32,000 nt of DNA. Source: Candidatus Saccharimonadota bacterium (GTDB taxonomy: Bacteria; Patescibacteriota; Gracilibacteria; UBA1369; 2-02-FULL-48-14). This document shows positions 1 to 30,890 of the stretch, piece by piece. Every line of letters begins with the position of its first letter. Positions within the stretch are counted from its first letter, which is position 1. Made by a program: the position numbers and the translations under genes. The stretch lies in NCBI GenBank assembly GCA_016699145.1, contig CP064962.1:1-32000 (forward strand), given 5' to 3'. The notes under the pieces are model-generated. The model did no database searches. It was not told the DNA's origin and saw only the letters and a program-made list of their open reading frames with translations.

Positions 1-15
1 CAGTCTAACAAGACC

Positions 16-1245
16 ATGAGCAATTAAAGACTCAAGCAAATTTTTCTTCATTGGCATCAGGCATTGGCATGAGTGGTCTCGCCCGTAACTTCTGAAGGCA
101 CAAGGCAAGGAGGTGACTGGGAGCGATTCCGTACGCAGTTCCACCATTGAAGGTTGCAGGAAAGGTTTCGCCATCGCCATCGGGCCGTGGTACATCACCT
201 CGATCCAGAAATCGACTGCGTGATTTACAACGGGGCCATTCCCGACACCAATCGTGAACTTCAAAAAGCCCGTGAACTCGATATTCCCGCACTCACTTAT
301 TTCCAAGCCCTGGGAGAAATGTCTCGCGACTACCGTGTGATCGCTATCGAAAGCAGTCGGCAAAACCACCACCACCGCCATGCTCACCCACATTTTGGAA
401 GCCGCCGATAAGAAGACCCCACCGTTATTGTGGGCGGCAAACTCAAGAATTCGGAAACAAAAAATGTGCGCGTGGGTGAGAGCGATTTATTCGTCGTGGA
501 AGCCTGTGAATACCGCCGCAACTTCATGAGTCTCAATCCCGACCTCCTGGGCATCACCAATATCGAACTCGACCATCTCGATTACTTCAAAGATCAAGCC
601 GATTATGAAAAAGCCTTCAATCAACTCGCTGCTCAAAGTGAAGAAGTGCTGTGGCCGGACGATTTCAGTGAATACGAAGGGGAGGTGGGAGTGCCCGGTC
701 AACACAATCTTGCAAACGCCGGCCTCGCCGCCGCGCTCGCGCGCCGGCTCGGCTGCCCCGAAGGCGCCATTGCCCAAGCCTTGAGCGACTACCAAGGCGC
801 TTGGCGCCGCTTCGAATTTAAAGGAGAAACCCTTTACGGAGCAAAAATTTACGACGACTACGCCCACCACCCCAGCGAAATCCGTGCGACCTTGGAGAGT
901 ACCCGAGAAAAATTCCCAGACGCTCGCCTCGTAGCCGTTTTTCAACCCCATCAATACAGTCGAACCGCAGCCCTGCTCGATGATTTTGCCGAAGCCTTTG
1001 AAGACGCCGACGAAGTGCTCATCCCCAATATTTATGCTGCCCGCGACACCGACGAAGACAGGCGCGCAGTTTCCGCCGAATCCCTGGTCGATGCCATTGC
1101 TCAGCATCACGACAACGTTCACCACGAAGCCGGCCTCGAAAACACCGCCTCTTACCTCGAAGACTCTCTCGAAGAAGGCGACGTGCTCATTGTGATGGGC
1201 GCAGGGGATGTGAACACGATCATTCCTTCTCTTTTAAACGGATGA
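16..1245 (+). pseudogene. murC: UDP-N-acetylmuramate--L-alanine ligase MurC. The 3' two-thirds is intact (ORF 430..1245); the 5' third is broken by about six frameshifts.
   Basis: MurC hallmarks are spread over three frames: GIGMSGLARN, LLKAQGKEVTGSDS, DPEIDCVIYNGAIPDTNRELQKARELDIP and the GKTTTTAMLTHILEAADK P-loop. The intact ORF then carries HNLANAGLAAALA, DDYAHHPSEI and FQPHQYSRT. Frame changes occur near 25, 59, 90, 150-190, 357 and 411. Confidence 0.85.
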
Positions 1246-3986: not shown

Positions 3987-6125
3987 CTATGCGCGTGCAC
4001 GTCGTCTCAACATCACATAACCGAGCGCCCCCAAAGTGCTGAGCAGCACCAAGGCATTCATGGCCGGTCCCGTTTCAGGAGTTCGATCCACATCTTGATC
4101 CAGCGTCGTAGACACAGGGTAGGTGGGCACCGTACTGCTTGGAGCACTTGCGCCTTCTTTCATTTCAGGCACCCCAAGCACGGCTTCACCCGCTTCACTT
4201 TCATTGCCCTCCACATCCACCGCTGTCACGGTGAAATAATAAAGTTCATTGGAGAGCAAATCACTGATGGTCCAATGTGTGGAGGAATCGGTGGTTTCTG
4301 AAACGGCAAAGAGCGCCGCTGGGGAAGGTCCGTAATAAACACGATAATAAGCCAAAGGGAGCGTACTTTCAGGGGTCTCCCAACTCAAAGCCACTAAACC
4401 GGGTCCACCGGTCGCACTGAGATTGGTCACGCTGTTCACCATTTTTTCCAAAGCGGGTTCTTGAACGGGCTCCTCATCTTCCACAGGTTCTTCTTCCAAG
4501 CTCACTTTCAAAAGAGCTTCATCTCTATATTGCACCTCATTGCCTAAAGCATCCGCAAGCAGCACATCAATAGAATACTCTCCCTCCATTGAAGGAGCGA
4601 CAAGCAAAACTTCATATTTTCCAGGACTGCTGCTTTCTTCCATACCGTACACTTCACCTTCAAATATCACAGAAGCCTCTTCCAAATCGGCCTCGCTGAG
4701 CACCACCACTTTCACATTCCCCTCGGGTTCCACTCCATTTTCAGGATCCATGCTGAGGGAAACCAATTGAGGAGCAGTGCTGTCGATACGCACGCTCTCG
4801 TTGCTCGATCTTTCCACCAACGCACCCTCTTCATCTCGAATTTCTACATAAATTTCATAATTTCCATCCTCTAAATTTTGAAGAGTGTAGGCAAAACTGT
4901 TGTCGAATTCAATATCCGCTTCACCGGCTTCTTCTTCATTCACAAAAATAAAAGCATGGTGGCCGTATTCCGCTTCACCTTGAATTTCAAGTGTGCCGGA
5001 AGAGTAACTACCCGAAGCAGGACTGATGAGTTCAAAGTCTCCTTCGCGAGCAAAATCGGTGGTTTCAAAATCGGGGTTGTAATCGACGCTAGCGTCTTCT
5101 TCATTAAGCACTTCCGTGCTGGCTTCGCCGTTCACTCGCACGTTGTCGAGGTCAGTCACGCTCAAAGTTTGCTCCCCGAGAGTGACAAATTTAACGCCCA
5201 AACTGAAGGAGTGTTCGCCTTGGTCTTCCGCCAAAAAAGTATAATCGTTGGGCAAGTCGGCCTGTTCATCACTCGAAGAAAAACGAATGCTTCCCGTATA
5301 ATCTGTCACGGTGAATCCTTCTTCATCAATGGCTTTCACAGTCACACTCAAAGAGTCACCCGTGAGACTTTCATCGTCAAGCCCAAGAATCACAAAGGCA
5401 TCCACAGGCCCACTTTCAGCGAGTTGCACAGAAGGTTCTAAGAGCAAGCCCTCCGCAGCCACTTGAGCCGGACCCAAAATGGGCTGACCTAAAGTGGAGT
5501 CAAAGAGTTGAATTTGAGCAATGCCTTCCGAGGAACCCAGTACCGAAAAGTTCATTTGTCCTTTTTCATTGGTCACAAATTCCGAACTGAACACTTGGAC
5601 AGAAGGGGAGTCGGCAGTGGCATACAGGGCATGTCCCATCACAGGATTGCCATAGGCATCTTTCAAAAGCACGTTCATTAAAGTGCTTTGTCGACTGGAG
5701 AGGACACTGCTGCTGAAATGAATGCGAGACTGAGCAAGATCGGGTTCAGCCGCCACCACCTCAAAACTTTGGGCAGCAGTGAAAGAGTTTCGTTTTTTCT
5801 CATAACCCGCTTCCAAAGCATAAGTCCCAGCGCTTTGAAATTCATTGCCGGGCAGGGTTAAAGTTCCCTGACCTTTTTCGTCCAGTTCTACAAGATAAGT
5901 TTTTGCGAGTCCATTCACACTGGTCAATTGCACCTCCACGTCCGCTTGAGCTTCACCTTGCAAGATCACTTGTAAATCGCTCCCAGCCACGGTTTCATCC
6001 ACTTTGGCCAGGCGCAGTTCCTCCGCAGGATGCAGCATTTTCAAGCCCCCGAGCAGCGTCAAAACACCCAACACGACCGCAAGAAGGCGCAAAGTTTTGT
6101 TTTGAAGAAGGAAAGAAGCTGCCAT
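3987..6125 (-). CDS. large cell-surface protein with Ig-like/FN3-like repeats and a sortase-type C-terminal sorting signal (TPETG)
   Basis: N-terminal hydrophobic signal or anchor (MAASFLLQNKTLRLLAVVLGVLTLLGG). Beta-rich repeated segments follow, then an FN3-like region (LVALSWETPES..YYRVYYG..YYFTVTAVDVEGNES). The C-terminus is TPETG (4068..4082) plus a hydrophobic stretch plus RRRARA. The start is placed at the second Met (6125) because a TATAAT box overlaps the first ATG (6147..6149); the alternative end is 6149. Confidence 0.75.
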   Translation of the reverse strand: MAASFLLQNKTLRLLAVVLGVLTLLGGLKMLHPAEELRLAKVDETVAGSDLQVILQGEAQADVEVQLTSVNGLAKTYLVELDEKGQGTLTLPGNEFQSAGTYALEAGYEKKRNSFTAAQSFEVVAAEPDLAQSRIHFSSSVLSSRQSTLMNVLLKDAYGNPVMGHALYATADSPSVQVFSSEFVTNEKGQMNFSVLGSSEGIAQIQLFDSTLGQPILGPAQVAAEGLLLEPSVQLAESGPVDAFVILGLDDESLTGDSLSVTVKAIDEEGFTVTDYTGSIRFSSSDEQADLPNDYTFLAEDQGEHSFSLGVKFVTLGEQTLSVTDLDNVRVNGEASTEVLNEEDASVDYNPDFETTDFAREGDFELISPASGSYSSGTLEIQGEAEYGHHAFIFVNEEEAGEADIEFDNSFAYTLQNLEDGNYEIYVEIRDEEGALVERSSNESVRIDSTAPQLVSLSMDPENGVEPEGNVKVVVLSEADLEEASVIFEGEVYGMEESSSPGKYEVLLVAPSMEGEYSIDVLLADALGNEVQYRDEALLKVSLEEEPVEDEEPVQEPALEKMVNSVTNLSATGGPGLVALSWETPESTLPLAYYRVYYGPSPAALFAVSETTDSSTHWTISDLLSNELYYFTVTAVDVEGNESEAGEAVLGVPEMKEGASAPSSTVPTYPVSTTLDQDVDRTPETGPAMNALVLLSTLGALGYVMLRRRARA

Positions 6126-6147
6126 ACGTACTGAGTTCAATCCGTCC

Positions 6148-6176
6148 ATTATAGCAAAAAATAAGCAAAATCACAA
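6148..6176 (-). promoter_or_regulatory. sigma70-type promoter for the surface-protein gene
   Basis: The minus strand reads TTGTGA, then a 17-nt T-rich spacer ending in TGC (extended -10), then TATAAT. The -10 box lies 22 nt upstream of ATG 6125. Confidence 0.6.
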
Positions 6177-15741: not shown

Positions 15742-17814
15742 ATGAGATTTAAAACTTTAAAAGGTTCCACTCCTATGCCCGATCAAACAAAAAAAGAAAT
15801 TCCCATCAATGACGTTGAACGTATTACGAATACGGTCAATAGAATTCCAGTCGATCTAGATGTGAAGGTAGCTTTGGAAGGGAAACTAGACACCAAGGGC
15901 CTTGCCGATGTGAAAGCAAAGATAGGGATACCTGATACTTGCAAGCTTACACTTGTACAGAATGGAACCTTTACAAAGTTGCTCACCAAGGTGCTAGGGG
16001 AAGATGATTTCAGTCAATTGAATCAGAACCAAAAGTATTTTTTGGCAGTTTTAGAACTCATCCTAGAGCAGCAAGGCTTAAATGCGGGCAAAGTGCTTCC
16101 AGAAGACGAAATTTCTTTTGATTTCACTCGAGGAACTTTTATATGGACTAGAGGTGGAGAATACCTCGATGGAGGAGATTTACATCTAAAAAATCGCGCT
16201 GAAGCTATAAAAGCCACTTCCAGCGATATACAAGCTCTGAATGAAAAGTTGTTGAAAGAGGGAATACTCACCGAAGCCTTAATGGCATACAAGGACGACC
16301 CAAGTTTTCAAGCCAGAAAGAACTATCTAAAACAAGAAGGTTTTTGTGAACTAGTCAACGCATATTTACTCCATAAAAATCCGACTGCTCAAGCAATAAG
16401 CCCAGAAAATTATAAGGGCACGCCTGAACAAAATTTAGCCTATTTGCAAGCTTATTTGAATTTTGCAGAAAAATATCGCCTCCTTCCAAATACAGGAGGA
16501 GTTTCACCAATGTCTGCTCTAGAAGGCAAAGGAGAGGAAGTGCCAGTCATACGATTGGAACTAGGAGTTATTGAGGGCAAAGCCCCCGAAGTAGCAGTCC
16601 CCGAAGTAACAGTTGAATGGGAACCAAAGGAGGGACCATTCATTGAAATTCAGCCAGAGGATGTAGAGAAAGTAACAGACTTGGATGGCAATTCTTACAA
16701 AGAACCTGAGCCTAAGGGAAACGATACTAAACAAGAAGGAGAAGGGAAGAAAGATGAAGGGAAGAAGGGAGAAGGAACGGAGGGAGAAGAAAAGAAGGAG
16801 GAAACTCCTTCAGGTGAAACTCCTTCAGGTGAAACTCCTTCAGGTGAAACTCCAGAGGAACCCGAAGACCCTGAAGCCACTAGGGAAACTAGGAAAACAA
16901 CGAATGATGCAATACAGGCCCCATTTATTCTAGAAGAATTCGATCCATACGCAGACGAAGAGCAGTTACCCGTTGGCACTAAAGGGCAAAAAAAAACAAT
17001 TGTACCGGAAACTGCCGAAGCCATTGAAAGCATGAATCCACTGAAGGCAGAATGGGAAAGCATCACAGACAAGTTTAAGGAAAACTATCCTAATGCAGGG
17101 ATACAAGTAGCTTCTCTCGAAGAGGTACAATTGACCAAAGACCAATGGTCTGAGTTAGGAATTCAAAACTCTGAAAGAAACGGTATCGATAGAGAAAATT
17201 CAAAAGTAGTTCTGTTGAAAGGTTCTGGAGGAGAGCGCAAAGTCTTTATTATTGTTCAAGAAGGAGGGGCATCCTACCTCGACAAAGGAGTCACAGCCGT
17301 GATAGAACGAGGACCAATTCCCCCTCGATACATCCGAGGAAGTCAGGGAGAAACGATTACTTACCTCCAAGCCATGGAACAGATTTCAGAGACAGAAGGA
17401 TGGAGCGTATTAACCGGATTAAATCTGGCCGCTGAAGAATTGGGATTGGAAAGATCGCCTTCCGAAGGAGATCAAGAAGCTTGGGCAGATCCGTGGAAAG
17501 TCATCTCCAAACTGGAAGGTTATGCAATGGAGGCATATACTTCCCCCAGTGCAGGCCTGCTCCTAAGACTGGACGAAGCAAAAGAGGAATTAGAAAAACA
17601 TGAAGTCCAAGCAGCTTGGGAGAAAACATTGGGGGCAGATCTTGCCACACAGAAAAGAGAAGAAGCGCTCAAACTGATCAGACAGACGGAACTTCAACCT
17701 GCGATGCTTACTGTCAAAGCCGGCTCAACAATTTTCAATAAAATTGTTGAAAAAAGAATAGAAAGGGAAATAAATAAAGAAGATAAAAAGCCAAAACAAG
17801 AAAATGAACAATAG
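15742..17814 (+). CDS. orphan 690-aa acidic/Lys-rich cytoplasmic protein of unknown function
   Basis: A long ORF with no signal peptide or TM segment. It has a central E/K/G-rich low-complexity region with three perfect ETPSG repeats. Rare-looking codons (ata, cta, aga, agg) are more frequent than in neighbouring genes, by eye. An alternative start is ATG 15775, if the extended -10 TGTTACAAT at 15732..15740 is used. Confidence 0.6.
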   Translation: MRFKTLKGSTPMPDQTKKEIPINDVERITNTVNRIPVDLDVKVALEGKLDTKGLADVKAKIGIPDTCKLTLVQNGTFTKLLTKVLGEDDFSQLNQNQKYFLAVLELILEQQGLNAGKVLPEDEISFDFTRGTFIWTRGGEYLDGGDLHLKNRAEAIKATSSDIQALNEKLLKEGILTEALMAYKDDPSFQARKNYLKQEGFCELVNAYLLHKNPTAQAISPENYKGTPEQNLAYLQAYLNFAEKYRLLPNTGGVSPMSALEGKGEEVPVIRLELGVIEGKAPEVAVPEVTVEWEPKEGPFIEIQPEDVEKVTDLDGNSYKEPEPKGNDTKQEGEGKKDEGKKGEGTEGEEKKEETPSGETPSGETPSGETPEEPEDPEATRETRKTTNDAIQAPFILEEFDPYADEEQLPVGTKGQKKTIVPETAEAIESMNPLKAEWESITDKFKENYPNAGIQVASLEEVQLTKDQWSELGIQNSERNGIDRENSKVVLLKGSGGERKVFIIVQEGGASYLDKGVTAVIERGPIPPRYIRGSQGETITYLQAMEQISETEGWSVLTGLNLAAEELGLERSPSEGDQEAWADPWKVISKLEGYAMEAYTSPSAGLLLRLDEAKEELEKHEVQAAWEKTLGADLATQKREEALKLIRQTELQPAMLTVKAGSTIFNKIVEKRIEREINKEDKKPKQENEQ
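16801..16854 (+). repeat. perfect 15-bp tandem repeat, about 3.5 copies (GAAACTCCTTCAGGT), in frame and encoding (ETPSG)3
   Basis: Units at 16801, 16816 and 16831 are identical, and a partial unit follows at 16846. Confidence 0.95.
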
Positions 17815-24951: not shown

Positions 24952-25992
24952 ATGAACTCAACTAAAAACATTTACCACAATTTAGACCAAGCAAATGCAG
25001 CCCTAGCTATGAGCTTAGCTCCTATAAGAGGCGCTAGGGCTGAAGAGCCTTTTTATGAATGCTCTAGAGCATTCAACGCTCTCTTAAATGGAGCCATCCA
25101 AAATGCACCTCATGTTTTAGGTGGCGTGGAAGTAGAGTTTGTGGGCCTGGACAAAAGGGATAGTAATGTCCCTCGTTGGCTACAAGCCATTGAGCAAGAT
25201 GTGACTCAACCCGACCCTGTTCGTGAAGCTGCCAAAGAAGGCCGCGTCATCATGCCTTTGCCCTTGGTCGTCGTAACCAGTAGAGCAAGTCATGGTTCAG
25301 GAGTGAGAGCAGATGCCATGGCATCGTTCGAATCGATTAAAGCAGACTGGATCCACCGCTCTGGGGAGGGGCTTCCAGCCATGAGTCTAGCAATGGAGCC
25401 TCCTTTATTTGGCACAAAGCATACAAGCGTACCAATAGGTTCTGTAGAGGCTGTGCGCTTTCTTCCATTCGGGGAATTCAACTTTTCACCCGCTTTGAAA
25501 CCCTATGGTGGATTGGAAGATCGAGGCACTCCATTCACTTATTATATCAAATCGGTGGGCTTTAGGCCGATAAATGACACTACATTGAACCATCTTGACG
25601 ACACGGCGAAACCTATAGTGGCAAATTGGTTGACCTGTAGGCCAGGCAACTATCGTCAAGATCCCAGACCTAAAATGATTATCCTTCCCGGAGAAGAGTC
25701 CCGGTTGCTAACGCTTGATGAAACCATTAGTGACCTCAGAGATCCTCGTGGTATGGAGGTCCGCACAACAGTGGTGGACCAACTGGTACATGGTCAAAAA
25801 AACCGAATAGATGAGGACCTGGTCAATGAGATTCGTGACAAGGAAGGCCTGAAGTGGTCTACAATGACGCGCGAAGAAAAGAGCGCGCTTCTTGCGCCGT
25901 CTAGGAGCCCTGTCCACTCGGTTCAAACAGTTCAAGGGAAAAGAGAGATAGTGGAATACTTGTGGCGCAGTACGCGACAGTCTCTTGCCTAG
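24952..25992 (+). CDS. orphan 346-aa soluble protein of unknown function
   Basis: A clean ORF with its own strong promoter and no TM segment or signal peptide. I recognise no motif. Codon choice (ata, aga, agg, cta, tta) looks atypical for the window, by eye. Confidence 0.6.
   Translation: MNSTKNIYHNLDQANAALAMSLAPIRGARAEEPFYECSRAFNALLNGAIQNAPHVLGGVEVEFVGLDKRDSNVPRWLQAIEQDVTQPDPVREAAKEGRVIMPLPLVVVTSRASHGSGVRADAMASFESIKADWIHRSGEGLPAMSLAMEPPLFGTKHTSVPIGSVEAVRFLPFGEFNFSPALKPYGGLEDRGTPFTYYIKSVGFRPINDTTLNHLDDTAKPIVANWLTCRPGNYRQDPRPKMIILPGEESRLLTLDETISDLRDPRGMEVRTTVVDQLVHGQKNRIDEDLVNEIRDKEGLKWSTMTREEKSALLAPSRSPVHSVQTVQGKREIVEYLWRSTRQSLA
25056..25075. repeat. perfect 20-bp palindrome TGAATGCTCTAGAGCATTCA inside the orphan CDS
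   Basis: Read directly from the sequence; its reverse complement is identical. It shares the CTCTAGAG core with the palindrome at 6178..6197. Confidence 0.9.
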
Positions 25993-26182: not shown

Positions 26183-27106
26183 CTAAATCATCTTCTCCAC
26201 CTTCGCACGCCACGCCTCACGCACCTCAAGCCGTGCATCTTTGTCATGAAACTTGAGCATGGAGTCCGAAATCACCGTACCCCTTTTATCTTCCAGCTCA
26301 TGAAACTTCGCCAGCGCGCGTCCCCACTGTTTTTCCCGGCACCAACGTTCCACCTTGTCGGAGTCGAGAAGCCACTCAAGGAGGCGATGTGCAAGTTTAA
26401 CCCATCCGCGGCTTGCCCTAAAGTAGCGTTTGCGTCGAACAGGCGCAGCAAAATAAGTGGAAAGCCAAGGCCAATTGAGCGCAATAAAATCCTCATAAAC
26501 ACTATAATCTCCCGCCACAGGCTGTAAGCTTTGCGCCCAAAACCCTAAGTAAATGTCATAAGGTTTCAAGAGCAGGGGGCTCAAATCCAGCGCTTCTTCC
26601 GTCACATAAAAACTCAAACAAAAGCGCTCGCGAATTTTCTGTCCATGCCGCCGAAGTCCAAAAAGAGAAGTCAGTAGCGTCAAAGCCAGACGGGCCGTAA
26701 AAAGTCGCCCCGGCTCAGCCACCACAAACAAATCGATGTCGCTGTTTTTGCGCGTGTCGCCCATTGTCACGCTGTTGCACACCGCAACGAGTCGCACAAA
26801 AGGGCAGAGTTGAAAAAGCCACCGCCACCGTGCCACTTTCGCAAAAGCGGCTCGAGTGCGCGCCTGTTTTTCCTCCCACTCTTTCCAAAACTCAGGGTTC
26901 CAGTGAAAACTCAAAAAGCCCTCGCGACGCATCACATAAGAGCTGTCTTTTAAATAAAGATCCAGGGCTCGCTCATCTGGCTTCTGGAAAAGCAAATAGT
27001 CGCTGAGTTCCTCGCGCGTCAAGGGCACTTCAAAAAGATCAAAATAGGCGAGGGTCGCCAGCACCGACTGTTTCACCGTCAATTGTTTAGGAAGCTCCAT
27101 TGCCAT
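26183..27106 (-). CDS. Pol-beta-superfamily nucleotidyltransferase-domain protein of unknown function
   Basis: An NTase signature is present (NSVTMGDTRKNSDIDLFVV, i.e. [GS]-x10-DxD), with a helical N-terminal segment (VLATLAYFDLFEVPLTREEL) and a helical C-terminus. The start is set at MAMELPKQ (27106); the track start at 27160 would overlap uvrC. Confidence 0.6.
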   Translation of the reverse strand: MAMELPKQLTVKQSVLATLAYFDLFEVPLTREELSDYLLFQKPDERALDLYLKDSSYVMRREGFLSFHWNPEFWKEWEEKQARTRAAFAKVARWRWLFQLCPFVRLVAVCNSVTMGDTRKNSDIDLFVVAEPGRLFTARLALTLLTSLFGLRRHGQKIRERFCLSFYVTEEALDLSPLLLKPYDIYLGFWAQSLQPVAGDYSVYEDFIALNWPWLSTYFAAPVRRKRYFRASRGWVKLAHRLLEWLLDSDKVERWCREKQWGRALAKFHELEDKRGTVISDSMLKFHDKDARLEVREAWRAKVEKMI

Positions 27107-27135
27107 ACACGAGGTTCTTATTTTACCATGGGTAT

Positions 27136-29473
27136 ATGGCAAAGTCCCACATTGAATCACTTTTGGAAAAACTTCCGCAAACCCCGGGTGTGTATAAAAT
27201 GAAGGATGAGGAGGGGCGTATCCTTTACGTGGGCAAAGCCAAAAATTTGAGTCGTCGTGTGCGCTCCTACTTTCGCAAACAGCAAAATCGCCCCATGCGC
27301 ACGCAAAAATTGGTGGAGTGCATCGCAGACCTCGAATGGATCGAAGTGGGCAGCGATCTCGAAGCTCTTTTCCTAGAAACCAACCTAATCAAGGAATATC
27401 GGCCCAAGTACAACATCTTGATGAAGGACGACAAAACTACATCTACATCAAAATCACTAAGGAAGATTTCCCACAAATTCAACTGGTGCGGAAGGTGGAA
27501 AAGGATGGCGCGCGTTACTTTGGCCCCAAAACCGCCGCCGGCACCGTGCGCAAAACTCTCATGCTCCTGCAAAAACTATTCATGTTTCGCAGCTGCGACC
27601 TGGGCATCACCTGGACTCCCGACAGCGAATTTCCCGAAAAAGGCCTCGCCACCGTCACAAAAAAAACCATCGCCTACCCCTGTCTGGATTATCACATCAA
27701 ACGCTGCGCGGCCCCTTGCATCGGAAAAATCACGCCGGAGGACTATAAAAAATCCATCGACAAAATCAGCCTTTTCCTCGAAGGAAAATCCAGCGAAATC
27801 GAACAGCAACTCAAGGATCAAATGGCCCTCTGCGCCGCTGAAAAACAGTTTGAAAAAGCCGCGCTGCTCCGTGACAAACTCCTTGCGCTTCAAGAGCTCA
27901 TGGTGCCCAACAAACAGGTGGTCACTTCACCCGAACAGGACAGCATGGACGTTTTTGCCTTTGTGCTCGAAGGGGGAAAGGCCTATTTCAACCTCTTCAT
28001 GCTGCGTGAAGGCAAGCTCATCAATCAAGAAAACTTCATTGCAGACGCCTTTGGTTTTGAGCCTGGGGAGGAGGAGCAAGCCGTGGAAGTCATGGAAGCT
28101 TTTCTTTACCAATATTATGGCAAAGCCACCGATTTCCCCAAACGGTGCTGATTCCTCACGAATTCGAAGAGCCCGACTTTCTCGAAGATTTTCTCAGCAG
28201 CCAAGCCGACTGCCGCGTTTATGTAAAAGTGCCTGAGCGGGGTCGCAAGCACCAACTTCTCGAACTTGCCGAAAAGAACGCCCGCAGCTTTCAAAAGCAG
28301 CACAAAGCTCGCTGGGAAGGCTTTGAAGAACGCGATGAAGAAGCTTTGGAGGAACTGGCAAAATACCTCAGCCTCCCCAAAAAACCCAAGCGCATGGAAT
28401 GCTATGACATTTCCCACCTGGGTGGTTCCGACACCGTGGCGAGTATGGTGGTTTTTGAAAATGGAAAATCCAAAAAGAGCGATTATCGTAAATTTCATCT
28501 CAAATCTTTAGCAGAAGGGGAGATCGACGACTTCAAATCCATGAAAGAAATTTTGTATCGCCGCCTTTCTTATCTCTACCGGGCACCCGCCGGCCTCACT
28601 TTTAAAAAGGCCGCCAAAACGCACAAGGCGGGCATCGAAGAATTGCTCACGGAGTGGCGCAAAGAACCGCAAATCGTGGGCAATGAACTCAGTGAATTCA
28701 CAGTGGCGCTCAAAGATAAAAAAGTGATAGCTCTCCTTCGCCTCACCGAAAGCAGTCCAGCTTGCTACCTGCAAAAATCGCTTTACGTGCTGCCGAGCGA
28801 ACGTGAACAAGGCATTGCCAAAGCCCTAATGCGCTGGACCTTCGACCACAAAAAAGCCAAACGTGTTTACCTGAGCTGCGACGAAGATAGGTGCGCGTAC
28901 TACAAAGATTTTGGCTTCGAAGAAGTCAAAAAAATACCTGAAGAATTTCTACTCCAACTCGAGACTGAACCCTATATGAAGGTCAAAAAATACCTGCTGG
29001 CTTACGACCCCACCAAGCACAAAGATGCCTCTTTTGAATCTAAACCTGACCTCATTGTCATCGATGGGGGAAAGGGCCAACTCAGTCACGCTCAAGAGAG
29101 TGCCCAAGAACTCGCTTGCACCATCCCTATGATCGGTCTCGCCAAACGCGAAGAGGAGGTCTTTGTGCCCGGCAAACCTTTTCCGATTTTAATGCCGAGC
29201 GACTCCAAAGCTTCTTACCTTTTGCAGCGCATCCGCAATGAAGCCCATCGCTTCGCCATAACCTTCCAACGCTCCACCCGCAAACAACACCTCACTGAAT
29301 CCGCCCTGGATAAAGTGAGTGGCCTCGGGGACGTCGGAAAAATGAAACTTCTGGAATACTTCGGCTCCGTCGAACAGATCAAAAAAGCCAGTGAAGCCGA
29401 CATCGCCAGTGTGGTGGGCAAAAGTTTGGCAGGGAAGATTTTGGAGGAATTATATGAAGAGCTTGATGTTTAG
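27136..29473 (+). pseudogene. uvrC: excinuclease ABC subunit C (UvrC), split over three frames by two single-base frameshifts and carrying a GNAT-like insertion
   Basis: GIY-YIG domain (GVYKMKDEEGRILYVGKAKNLSRRVRSY, EYRPKYNILMKDDK). After the A4 run 27433..27436 the reading continues in the frame of ORF 27318..28151 (NYIYIKITKEDFPQ, UVR domain QFEKAALLRDKLLALQEL). After CCCCAAA at 28136..28142 it continues in ORF 28145..29473 (ECYDISH, IDGGKGQL, IRNEAHRFA, HhH GLGDVGKMKLLEYFGS). Confidence 0.9.
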
Positions 29474-29506
29474 TACTATTCATAGTACTATTCATAGTAT
29501 TATTAA
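29471..29506 (+). promoter_or_regulatory. tandem 12-bp repeats (TAGTACTATTCA x2 plus a degenerate TAGTATTATTAA), each containing the 8-bp palindrome TAGTACTA; candidate operator of the TA operon
   Basis: Read directly from the sequence. The array starts at the uvrC stop codon and ends 20 nt before the antitoxin ATG. A further AGTATTAT occurs at 29520..29527. Confidence 0.55.
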
Positions 29507-29525
29507 AAGCACTAAATACAGTATT

Positions 29526-29783
29526 ATGAATAACACCCTCACCGCACAAGAACTAAAAACCAAAGGCACACAAATTTTAAAGGAAAGGACGAAGAGATTT
29601 AAAGAAGCAGTTGTATCCGTCCGCGGGAAAAACACTTACGTGGTTTTAACCATAGAACATTACAATCACCTAAGGGAATGTGAATTGGAAGCTGCTTTAG
29701 CAGCAACTGAAAAAGATATCTCTGAGGGTAATTTTAAGATCAAGAGTATAGAAGATCACATCAAAGAATTGAGACATGCTTAA
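29526..29783 (+). CDS. Phd/YefM-like type II antitoxin
   Basis: An 85-aa protein directly upstream of the RelE-like toxin and overlapping it by 8 nt (VVSVRGKNTYVVLTIEHYNHL). The start is trimmed to ATG 29526, because the track ORF at 29391 runs back into uvrC. Confidence 0.65.
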   Translation: MNNTLTAQELKTKGTQILKERTKRFKEAVVSVRGKNTYVVLTIEHYNHLRECELEAALAATEKDISEGNFKIKSIEDHIKELRHA

Positions 29784-30048
29784 ATTACTTCTAACGGACT
29801 CATATCAAAAGAAGGCTAAGAAGTTTTTTGCAAAAAATCCTACAGTTCTCAATTCATATGAAAAAACATTAAAGCTTTTGTGCATCAACCCTAGACATCC
29901 TTCATTGAGACTCCATAAGCTCAAAAGAAATTTAGAAGGACTCTTCAGCGTATCAATAAATATTTCTTACCGACTTCTCATTTACTTTATTTTTAAAGAT
30001 GATCAAATTGTGCCGGTGGACATTGGCTCTCACGACGAAGTATATTGA
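29776..30048 (+). CDS. RelE/YafQ-superfamily type II toxin (mRNA interferase)
   Basis: A 90-aa protein. HPSLRLHKLKRNLEGLFSVSINISYRLLIYF...IGSHDEVY matches the RelE/StbE-type pattern HPSLxxHKLxGxLxGxxSxxIxxxYRxxxxxxxxxxxxxxIGxHDEVY. Confidence 0.8.
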   Translation: MLKLLLTDSYQKKAKKFFAKNPTVLNSYEKTLKLLCINPRHPSLRLHKLKRNLEGLFSVSINISYRLLIYFIFKDDQIVPVDIGSHDEVY

Positions 30049-30067: not shown

Positions 30068-30508
30068 ATGAACCTCACCGAACTCCAAGAAAACCTCAAA
30101 CAGGCCATGCTCGCAAAGGATGAGCTCAAAACCTCTGTGCTTCGCATGCTCAAGGCTGAAATCATGAAAATTCAAACGGATGGATCTGGCACCGAAATCA
30201 CCGAAGAAATCATTCAAAATACTCTCCAAAAACTGGTGAAACAACGCAAAGACGCCGCTCAGCAATTCAAAGATGGTGGTCGCCCCGAACTCGCTGAAAA
30301 GGAAGAAGCAGAAATCGCACTTCTACAAGCCTATTTGCCCGAGCAAATGTCCGAAGACGCCATTCGTGCGGAAGTCAAAGCCACCAAAGAAGCACTCGGT
30401 ATCACCGACAAAAGTGGCCTTGGAAAGCTCATGGGGGCTCTGATGGGCAAGCTCAAAGGCAAGGCGGATGGAGGACTCATCAAGAAGATTGTGGAAGAGG
30501 AACTTTAA
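30068..30508 (+). CDS. yqeY: GatB/YqeY domain protein
   Basis: LKQAMLAKDELKTSVLRMLKAEI, RKDAAQQFKDGGRPELAEKEEAEIALLQAYLP and GKLMGALMGKLKGKADG. Confidence 0.85.
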   Translation: MNLTELQENLKQAMLAKDELKTSVLRMLKAEIMKIQTDGSGTEITEEIIQNTLQKLVKQRKDAAQQFKDGGRPELAEKEEAEIALLQAYLPEQMSEDAIRAEVKATKEALGITDKSGLGKLMGALMGKLKGKADGGLIKKIVEEEL

Positions 30509-30768
30509 ACGTTCCTTTTAAGCCACACTTTTTTCACCGCAGGAATCGTGAGCGTCGACAAAAAGAATCCGACACTCGGCACGATGGCGTTCACGAAAAT
30601 ATTTCCAATCCCCGTCGTCCAAAACACCAATACCATCACGGTGTAGGTCAAAATCAAAACAAGCACTTTGCGCGTCCAACTCGTTTCCCATGCCTTATCG
30701 GCCTCCACTTTTTTATTGCGGGCCTTGAGTTGATCGATCTCAGACAGTAGGTCTTCTATCGTAGCCAT
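30505..30768 (-). CDS. hypothetical small membrane protein (N-terminal coiled segment plus two TM helices)
   Basis: An 87-aa protein starting at MATIEDLLSEIDQLKARNKK. The track ORF (to 30873) runs through the tRNA gene, so it is trimmed here. Confidence 0.5.
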   Translation of the reverse strand: MATIEDLLSEIDQLKARNKKVEADKAWETSWTRKVLVLILTYTVMVLVFWTTGIGNIFVNAIVPSVGFFLSTLTIPAVKKVWLKRNV

Positions 30769-30774
30769 AAGTTT

Positions 30775-30863
30775 TGGTGCCGAAAGTGGGGGTCGAACCC
30801 ACACTCCCGATGAAGGGAACGGGATTTTGAGTCCCGCGCGTCTGCCAGTTTCGCCATTTCGGC
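30775..30863 (-). tRNA. tRNA-Leu (anticodon CAA), type II with a long variable arm and an encoded CCA
   Basis: The reverse complement is GCCGAAATGGCGAAACTGGCAGACGCGCGGGACTCAAAATCCCGTTCCCTTCATCGGGAGTGTGGGTTCGACCCCCACTTTCGGCACCA. The acceptor stem is GCCGAAA/TTTCGGC. The anticodon stem is CGGGA/TCCCG with loop CTCAAAA. The T arm is GTGGG-TTCGACC-CCCAC. Confidence 0.93.
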
Positions 30864-30890
30864 ACGGGCGCAAAATTACAGCATTTTTCC

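Follow-up and report, generated by a model that had tools for sequence, protein, structure and literature searches.

We analysed a 32,000-nucleotide stretch of DNA (positions 1 to 32,000 of contig CP064962.1, forward strand; hereafter the window) and found that its uvrC gene encodes a nucleotide excision repair nuclease whose catalytic RNase H-like endonuclease domain is divided in two by a complete, nested acetyltransferase domain of the GNAT type. The gene is a bona fide uvrC of a Peribacteria-like bacterium (Peregrinibacteria; candidate phyla radiation, CPR), and the nested GNAT belongs to the whole Peregrinibacteria/Peribacteria lineage. A preliminary description of the window, made from the sequence alone, had proposed such an insert and knew of no described UvrC that carries one. 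Our full-text literature searches, the Peribacteria genome paper included, likewise found no description of a GNAT within UvrC. The UvrC homolog occupies 27136-29473 on the plus strand and spans three reading frames, with the following features.

27136-27436, plus strand: uvrC segment 1 (frame 1), with the start codon and the GIY-YIG 3'-incision domain; translation MAKSHIESLL...NILMKDDK
27433-27437, plus strand: frameshift site 1, where an A run (gacAAAAct) or its immediate flank lacks one base; 1-nt gap against the intact orthologue of related locus L001 (blastn)
27437-28144, plus strand: uvrC segment 2 (frame 0), with a Cys-rich region, the UVR motif and the first, non-catalytic RNase H-like domain
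28136-28145, plus strand: frameshift site 2, one base missing near ttCCCCaaacgg; 1-nt gap against L001 (blastn)
28340-28576, plus strand: N-terminal half (beta1-3, alpha1) of the RNase H-like 5'-incision endonuclease, with the catalytic Asp D88 at 28406-28408
28577-29041, plus strand: GNAT domain of 155 aa, nested in the loop between alpha1 and beta4 of the endonuclease (Pfam, AlphaFold2 and Foldseek)
28802-28819, plus strand: GNAT motif A (acetyl-CoA pyrophosphate-binding loop), R-E-Q-G-I-A, which fits Q/R-x-x-G-x-G/A
28901-28918, plus strand: GNAT motif B, Y-K-D-F-G-F, with a Tyr four residues before G-F
29042-29269, plus strand: C-terminal half of the endonuclease, which contributes D307 (29063-29065) and H368 (29246-29248) to the DDH triad; its alignment to 2nrt starts at 2nrt residue 84
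29303-29452, plus strand: (HhH)2 DNA-binding domain, Pfam HHH_5 (PF14520) 33.9 bits, residues 387-436 of the third open reading frame (ORF); aligns to 2nrt and 1kft

The GIY-YIG domain (Pfam PF01541) scored 46.1 bits against a cutoff of 22.6 within 27136-27432, and the UvrB-interacting UVR motif (PF02151) scored 25.1 bits against 21.5 in the frame-0 segment, where PF22920 also matched (45.4 bits). The third ORF, 28145-29473 on the plus strand, is 442 aa long and comprises the catalytic RNase H-like endonuclease (PF08459, 170.7 bits) and the (HhH)2 domain. Adding one base at each of the two frameshift sites gave a repaired UvrC of 779 aa, which scored 547.4 bits against the NCBIfam equivalog TIGR00194 (cutoff 285.45) and 539.5 bits against NF001824 (cutoff 451). 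The flanking UvrC motifs, earlier described as intact, are all present, but the gene as sequenced is spread over three frames by two single-base deletions, as the preliminary description had implied by speaking of a repaired translation. The uvrA and uvrB genes lie outside the window.

The peptides ECYDISH, LYVLPSEREQGIAKALMRW, RVYLSCDEDRCAYYKDFGFEEV and VIDGGKGQL are all encoded by the 28145-29473 ORF, whose numbering is used here. The catalytic residues D88 (in ECYDISH) and D307 (in VIDGGKGQL) are 219 aa apart, and the corresponding distance is ~62 aa in Thermotoga maritima UvrC (2nrt); the preliminary description had put the two spacings at about 220 and about 60 aa. A phmmer search against the PDB aligned residues 65-142 to 2nrt residues 6-80 and residues 300-433 to 2nrt residues 84-216, and the alignments to 3c65 and 8b0q broke at the same point. 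Thus, a loop of a few residues in the solved UvrCs corresponds to ~157 aa in the window protein. The match to PF08459 was also broken in two, at profile position 71/72, with its first stretch covering residues 73-144 (profile positions 2-71). Together, these profile and structure alignments delimited an insert of about 155 aa between the halves of the endonuclease, with bounds at residues 145-299 and nucleotides 28577-29041. The insert is therefore real but slightly wider than first proposed (28580-29014, ~135 aa). D307 and H368 were invariant and D88 nearly invariant among 121 sequences, and all three align to the solved UvrCs.

Searched alone with hidden Markov models, the insert passed the Pfam gathering thresholds of two GNAT families, Acetyltransf_7 (PF13508; 42.7 bits, cutoff 27, E 7e-11) and Acetyltransf_1 (PF00583; 36.7 bits, cutoff 20.7), a signal well above chance level. 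Motifs A and B read as the preliminary description had them. We then ran AlphaFold2 on the 442-aa ORF with a 121-sequence alignment. The model had a mean predicted local distance difference test score (pLDDT) of 91.8 and a predicted template modelling score of 0.79, and across the insert the pLDDT was ~88-98 per 10-residue block. Residues 151-287 followed the GNAT order of secondary structure elements, b1-a1-a2-b2-b3-b4-a3-b5-a4-b6-b7 (b1 151-155, a1 158-172, a2 181-184, b2-b4 185-215, a3 224-235, b5 240-245, a4 247-256, final strand 283-287). The AlphaFold check proposed in the preliminary description thus came out positive: the topology of a GNAT is predicted with confidence, and the RNase H fold that surrounds it is intact.

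A Foldseek search of the model against the PDB returned UvrC C-terminal halves as the top matches (2nrt, E 3e-17). The isolated endonuclease domain 2nrr, a target of 139 residues, matched with a target-normalised template modelling score (TMt) of 0.90 in an alignment of 307 columns, indicating that the nuclease fold is intact around an excursion of ~165 columns. The next matches were GNATs, namely N-acetylglutamate synthase (NAGS), Rv2747, GCN5/PCAF, Ard1 and Naa50, with E ~1e-6 and TMt 0.6-0.7. Neither the nuclease fold nor the DDH triad is disrupted by the insertion. The standard RNase H topology would place the alpha1-beta4 loop and the catalytic carboxylates at opposite ends of the sheet; a GNAT on that side, off the catalytic face, should leave cutting unobstructed.

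The insertion is not peculiar to this genome. A search with the third ORF listed 120 matches that were 40-68% identical, nearly all of them 700-775 aa long and carrying PF13508 or PF00583 together with PF08459. The named matches were annotated plainly as 'excinuclease ABC subunit UvrC' and came from Ca. Gracilibacteria, Ca. Peregrinibacteria and the Patescibacteria group; the only match with a different name was a fragment, 'GNAT family N-acetyltransferase, partial'. We compiled 111 full-length sequences (110 listed matches and the repaired window protein). All 111 had an insert at this site (113-167 aa, median 150), and none lacked it; at least 111 full-length UvrC clusters carry the insert. 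Divergent representatives at 50% identity, found by searching with the insert alone, were also UvrCs broken at the same place, and those with names were Peregrinibacteria or Peribacteria records, including KKR06977.1. Among the matches listed, every named record with the insert belonged to Ca. Peregrinibacteria, Peribacteria or 'Gracilibacteria'. The survey of orthologues suggested earlier thus bore out an identical insertion point in more than 100 relatives, a trait of the lineage rather than of this genome.

The insert alone gave 25 matches among 1.84 billion representatives, a single-sequence search too insensitive to serve as a census. The nearest were other UvrC inserts, and free GNATs were reached only at E ~1e-6. 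A profile built from 24 inserts returned four fragments from 5.8 billion proteins; its word prefilter evidently missed the family, and the result carries no information on how large the family is. In GTDB species representatives, the window's subfamily mapped to metagenome-assembled genomes of Ca. Peribacteria and Peregrinibacteria; this related-locus search, which yielded ten loci (L001-L010), reaches the window's own subfamily only. In the closest locus, CALRCE010000002, the insert was 67% identical. The related loci share a conserved gene order of der, a 325-aa gene on the minus strand, uvrC, yqeY, tRNA-Leu and a dsbA-like gene. These results indicated that the insertion is old and shared across the lineage. 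The architecture is visible in public domain annotations, yet it seems to have gone unnoticed. Sequences of this kind were already public in the CPR datasets of 2015, if not earlier, and nearly all are labelled plain 'UvrC'.

We also considered two candidate origins of the insert that would make it local to this genome, and rejected both. A recent mobile origin did not fit a GC content equal to that of the flanks, and no inverted repeats or target-site duplications were found flanking the insert. An assembly chimera did not fit the same in-frame insert in more than 100 independent assemblies. Two minus-strand ORFs over the insert (28508-28810 and 28576-28746) had no independent support, their related-locus matches being antisense within uvrC. 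The C-terminal loop of the insert, which is variable, contains a weak 35-nt direct repeat (71% identity; plus strand, 28922-28956 and 28978-29012) that reads EVKKIPEE and KVKKYLLA. A short duplication in frame may account for the ~9 residues by which the window insert exceeds the ~146 aa of relatives such as P0001-P0012, or the repeat may be due to chance.

The window sequence has no uninterrupted uvrC frame, which raises the question of whether the gene is functional here. A single nucleotide is missing at each site, and short A and C runs lie at or beside the gaps. With one A added, site 1 reads DDKNYIYIKIT, matching P0001 and P0003; repaired site 2 reads DFPKRVLIPHEFEE, for comparison with DFPQTILIPHEFEE in L002. 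All ten related loci have UvrC in a single frame. A read-through under genetic code 25 (UGA = Gly) at the TGA at 28149 was rejected, as the downstream frame-0 sequence is not UvrC-like and the next frame continues UvrC. Two frameshifts in 2.3 kb of uvrC, in a window where CysS, MurJ, Der and other large genes are intact, could point to a recently inactivated pseudogene, or the insert could be an assembly artefact. We consider such an explanation highly unlikely. The artefact is countered by the independent assemblies mentioned above. As for the pseudogene, the repaired UvrC matches 180 of the 181 columns that are at least 90% conserved (13 of 13 in the insert) and contains no in-frame stops. 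Moreover, a murC-like Mur ligase gene at 1-1245 (plus strand) uses all three plus-strand frames, with at least five frame switches in its first ~500 nt, and keeps its signature motifs intact (GIGMSGLA, GKTTTTAM and others), suggesting locally error-prone sequence rather than gene decay. Because the murC of the same window is also frameshifted, the uvrC frameshifts are most likely errors of sequencing or assembly, with sequencing errors the likeliest explanation of the two.

Median identity to the window protein was 30% for the insert and 63% for the nuclease core, indicating that the insert changes more rapidly than the remainder of the protein. Nei-Gojobori ratios of nonsynonymous to synonymous substitution rates (dN/dS) were 0.11-0.18 for the insert, compared with 0.04-0.07 for the core. 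In the pair with the least saturation, L001 and L002, the insert gave 0.114 at dS 0.81. Thus, the insert is under purifying selection. We examined the GNAT motifs across the 111 sequences. The motif A Arg is R in 95/111, and position 6 of this motif is G or A in 101/111. In motif B, the Tyr is Y in 103/111 and F in 2, and the G-F pair has G in 108/111 and F in 99/111. The beta5 Tyr is present in all 111, and the junction motif D-x-S-F is invariant or nearly so. Both motifs are retained in 87% of the members. With about 13% having lost them, the pattern is compatible with either of the roles named in the preliminary description, a coupling of repair to acetylation or a degenerate structural insert.

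From these patterns we put it at about an even chance that in most members, the window protein included, the nested GNAT has retained acetyl-CoA binding and catalytic activity, with UvrC bringing the acetyltransferase to the UvrB-DNA pre-incision complex. The motif B Tyr occupies what we take to be the position of the general-acid Tyr in serotonin N-acetyltransferase (AANAT). Its occurrence almost exclusively as Tyr instead of Phe, together with the beta5 Tyr found in all 111 sequences, suggests that the hydroxyl groups are needed, which fits catalysis. Acetyl-CoA is, moreover, a central metabolite in Peribacteria (PMC4736985). In the mechanism we propose, UvrC would carry the acetyltransferase to the UvrB-DNA pre-incision complex; the likeliest acceptor would be a Lys or N-terminal amine of a protein, be it a partner in repair, UvrC itself or a nucleoid protein present at the lesion; and acetylation there could modulate incision or hand-off.

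Five observations weigh against a catalytic insert. First, position 4 of motif A is G in only 32/111 sequences and Lys in 56/111. Second, 14 of the 111 members lack motif A or B and retain the insert; their nearest neighbours are mostly intact, so that the losses were probably independent. Third, the most reduced member, P0034 (113-aa insert; AlphaFold2 pLDDT 88), keeps the sheet, a3 and b5, whereas a1, a2 and motif A are gone, and Foldseek found only a weak GNAT remnant in it (E ~2e-3, TMt 0.4); the absence of a1 and a2 indicates that catalysis is dispensable in some lineages. Fourth, no NCBIfam equivalog came near its cutoff with the window insert (the best was ArsN2, 22.9 bits against 125), the characterised subfamilies considered including RimI, AAC(6'), MshD and NAGS. 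The close homolog P0001 likewise scored 19.6 bits against the RimI cutoff of 86.4. With no GNAT subfamily near its cutoff, the sequence does not indicate the acceptor. Fifth, no acetylation-related neighbour gene is conserved at the related loci.

The main rival to a catalytic role is that the insert has been exapted as an essentially non-catalytic scaffold, either structurally entrenched or offering a basic surface that binds DNA or a partner, with the motifs kept for fold stability. Several of the observations above fit it: motif A or B has been lost in scattered lineages and the insert in none of the 111, with a minimum of 113 aa; what P0034 has kept is modelled at high pLDDT; D-x-S-F at the junction is among the invariant residues; and Lys is usual at motif A position 4. 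The insert is also about as basic as the HhH domain, with a median pI of 9.5 and a net charge of +10. In 12 members without (HhH)2 its median net charge is +10.5, compared with +5 in HhH-bearing members of the same subfamily, although this comparison probably rests on a single clade. The charge argument is in any case weak because CPR proteins tend to be basic in general. A scaffold would also have no obvious need for what most members preserve, namely both motifs, the Arg of motif A and the choice of Tyr over Phe in motif B. We regard a scaffold as possible, but on balance rather unlikely.

The members with shortened inserts (113-143 aa) are P0034, P0036, P0037, P0043, P0077, P0094, P0105 and P0111. 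All have lost motif A and several have lost motif B, and all retain the beta5 Tyr and the D-x-S-F junction. They are natural 'catalytically dead' variants, and provide built-in controls for separating structural from catalytic roles. The HhH-less Peribacteria subclade, in which the protein ends right after the EAHRFA helix, is represented among the related loci by L006, L008 and L009 (uvrC end near locus position 4702). Further HhH-less members are P0014-16, P0019, P0022, P0024, P0035, P0039, P0041, P0042, P0060 and P0070.

The conserved cofactor-binding motifs would also suit a GNAT that binds acetyl-CoA or CoA without transferring the acetyl group and allosterically tunes the 5' endonuclease, linking incision to metabolic state. 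PanZ is a precedent for a GNAT acting as an acetyl-CoA sensor, and nesting directly in the catalytic nuclease domain suits allosteric coupling. However, a pure sensor would not need the putative general-acid Tyr, which is conserved; members without the motifs retain an otherwise normal UvrC; and the insertion loop, judging from the fold topology, would be distal to the active site. We therefore rate a PanZ-like sensor as distinctly improbable, even though acetyl-CoA is a metabolic hub in Peribacteria, which make it via pyruvate:ferredoxin oxidoreductase and channel carbon into it (PMC4736985).

The choice of acceptor in a catalytic GNAT has its own alternative. Searching the PDB with a profile of the insert family gave, as the best matches, small GNATs that are generically named or of unknown function (3d8p, E 7e-11; SACOL1063; ElaA), with which the family shares the beta5 signature 'h-Y-L/V'. 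A substrate other than protein, such as a DNA lesion, a DNA end, a nucleotide or a small DNA-damaging molecule detoxified at the repair site, would be in keeping with the tethering of a domain with a basic surface to a nuclease that sits on DNA. Some enzymes of the GNAT fold do have nucleic acids as substrates, as in TmcA/NAT10 and phage Mu Mom. The insert also shows a weak, sub-threshold likeness to the ArsN2 and AAC(6') models, but none of the specific families is matched above its cutoff. Among the structural neighbours, acetyltransferases of amino acids and proteins predominate (NAGS, GCN5/PCAF, Ard1/Naa50), a ranking that discriminates poorly, and we know of no precedent in nucleotide excision repair. 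We consider this explanation extremely improbable. The most specific form of the catalytic proposal, in which the Peregrinibacteria UvrC would be a bifunctional nuclease/acetyltransferase that acetylates a repair partner or nucleoid protein (UvrB, HU or UvrC itself) at the lesion, is tentative, and unlikely in that full form.

We compared the window protein with known systems. All modules of canonical UvrC (2NRT/2NRR from T. maritima, 3C65 from B. stearothermophilus and 8B0Q from D. radiodurans) are present in it, but where canonical UvrC has an alpha1-beta4 loop of 3-9 residues, the window UvrC has the 155-aa GNAT. Its 779 aa compare with roughly 600 aa in a typical UvrC and with 567-698 positions in the NCBIfam UvrC models. 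A second enzymatic domain in the UvrC family has a precedent in the Cho/UvrC-like nucleases fused to a DnaQ-type DEDD exonuclease (PRK07883), whose models the N-terminal half of the window protein matches. However, PRK07883 is a terminal fusion of a nuclease to the GIY-YIG half, whereas the acetyltransferase here is nested in the C-terminal endonuclease. Small stand-alone GNATs, most of unknown function (3D8P from S. aureus, SACOL1063 5JPH, ElaA 5Z6N), and by structure also GCN5/PCAF, Ard1/Naa50 and NAGS, have the same fold and motifs A and B; the insert differs from them in being part of a larger protein, in being unusually basic and in having Lys at motif A position 4 in half of the family. 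In Hermes and Tn5, whole domains are nested in a loop of the RNase H-like fold and leave the catalytic core undisturbed. Those are non-enzymatic helical or beta domains that aid DNA binding; the window insert, unlike them, is a recognisable cofactor-dependent enzyme fold.

Several other features of the window were recorded. A low-GC stretch lies between uvrC and yqeY at 29500-30048 (plus strand; 0.31-0.37 compared with ~0.5 elsewhere). It holds a small putative antitoxin-like ORF, for which Pfam gave no match, and a toxin gene of the YafQ/RelE type (PF15738, 29.6 bits, just short of the cutoff of 30). This toxin/antitoxin-like gene pair had no match in L001-L010, and yqeY follows within tens of bases 3' of uvrC in L005, L006 and L008; the pair therefore looks like an insertion particular to the window's own lineage. 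A tRNA-Leu gene (anticodon CAA) lies at 30775-30863 on the minus strand. It is overlapped by a 122-aa minus-strand ORF (30505-30873), which is partly a translation artefact. Three ORFs had no Pfam match: 26183-27160 (minus strand, 325 aa), 15742-17814 (plus strand, 690 aa) and 24952-25992 (plus strand, 346 aa). The first of these is divergent from uvrC and adjoins it in every related locus (nine of ten) except L002, which begins inside uvrC. The window also encodes a type IV secretion pilin-like protein (PF18895; 22191-22697, minus strand) and a 720-aa protein (3987-6149, minus strand) with Big_13 and fn3 domains above the Pfam cutoffs and weaker Ig-like matches (Big_1, Big_3_3). Both are typical CPR candidates for surface or attachment proteins.

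The layout of UvrC is among the most uniform of bacterial repair proteins, and a cofactor-dependent enzyme domain nested within it would surprise specialists in excision repair. That selection has kept the insert across a whole candidate phylum suggests a layer of nucleotide excision repair that has so far gone unrecognised, which could be the acetylation of repair or nucleoid proteins or the metabolic gating of incision. If the bifunctional nuclease/acetyltransferase proposed above is real, it would be a bacterial counterpart of the acetylation-assisted nucleotide excision repair of eukaryotic chromatin, and it would tie incision or complex turnover to the availability of acetyl-CoA in metabolically minimal cells.

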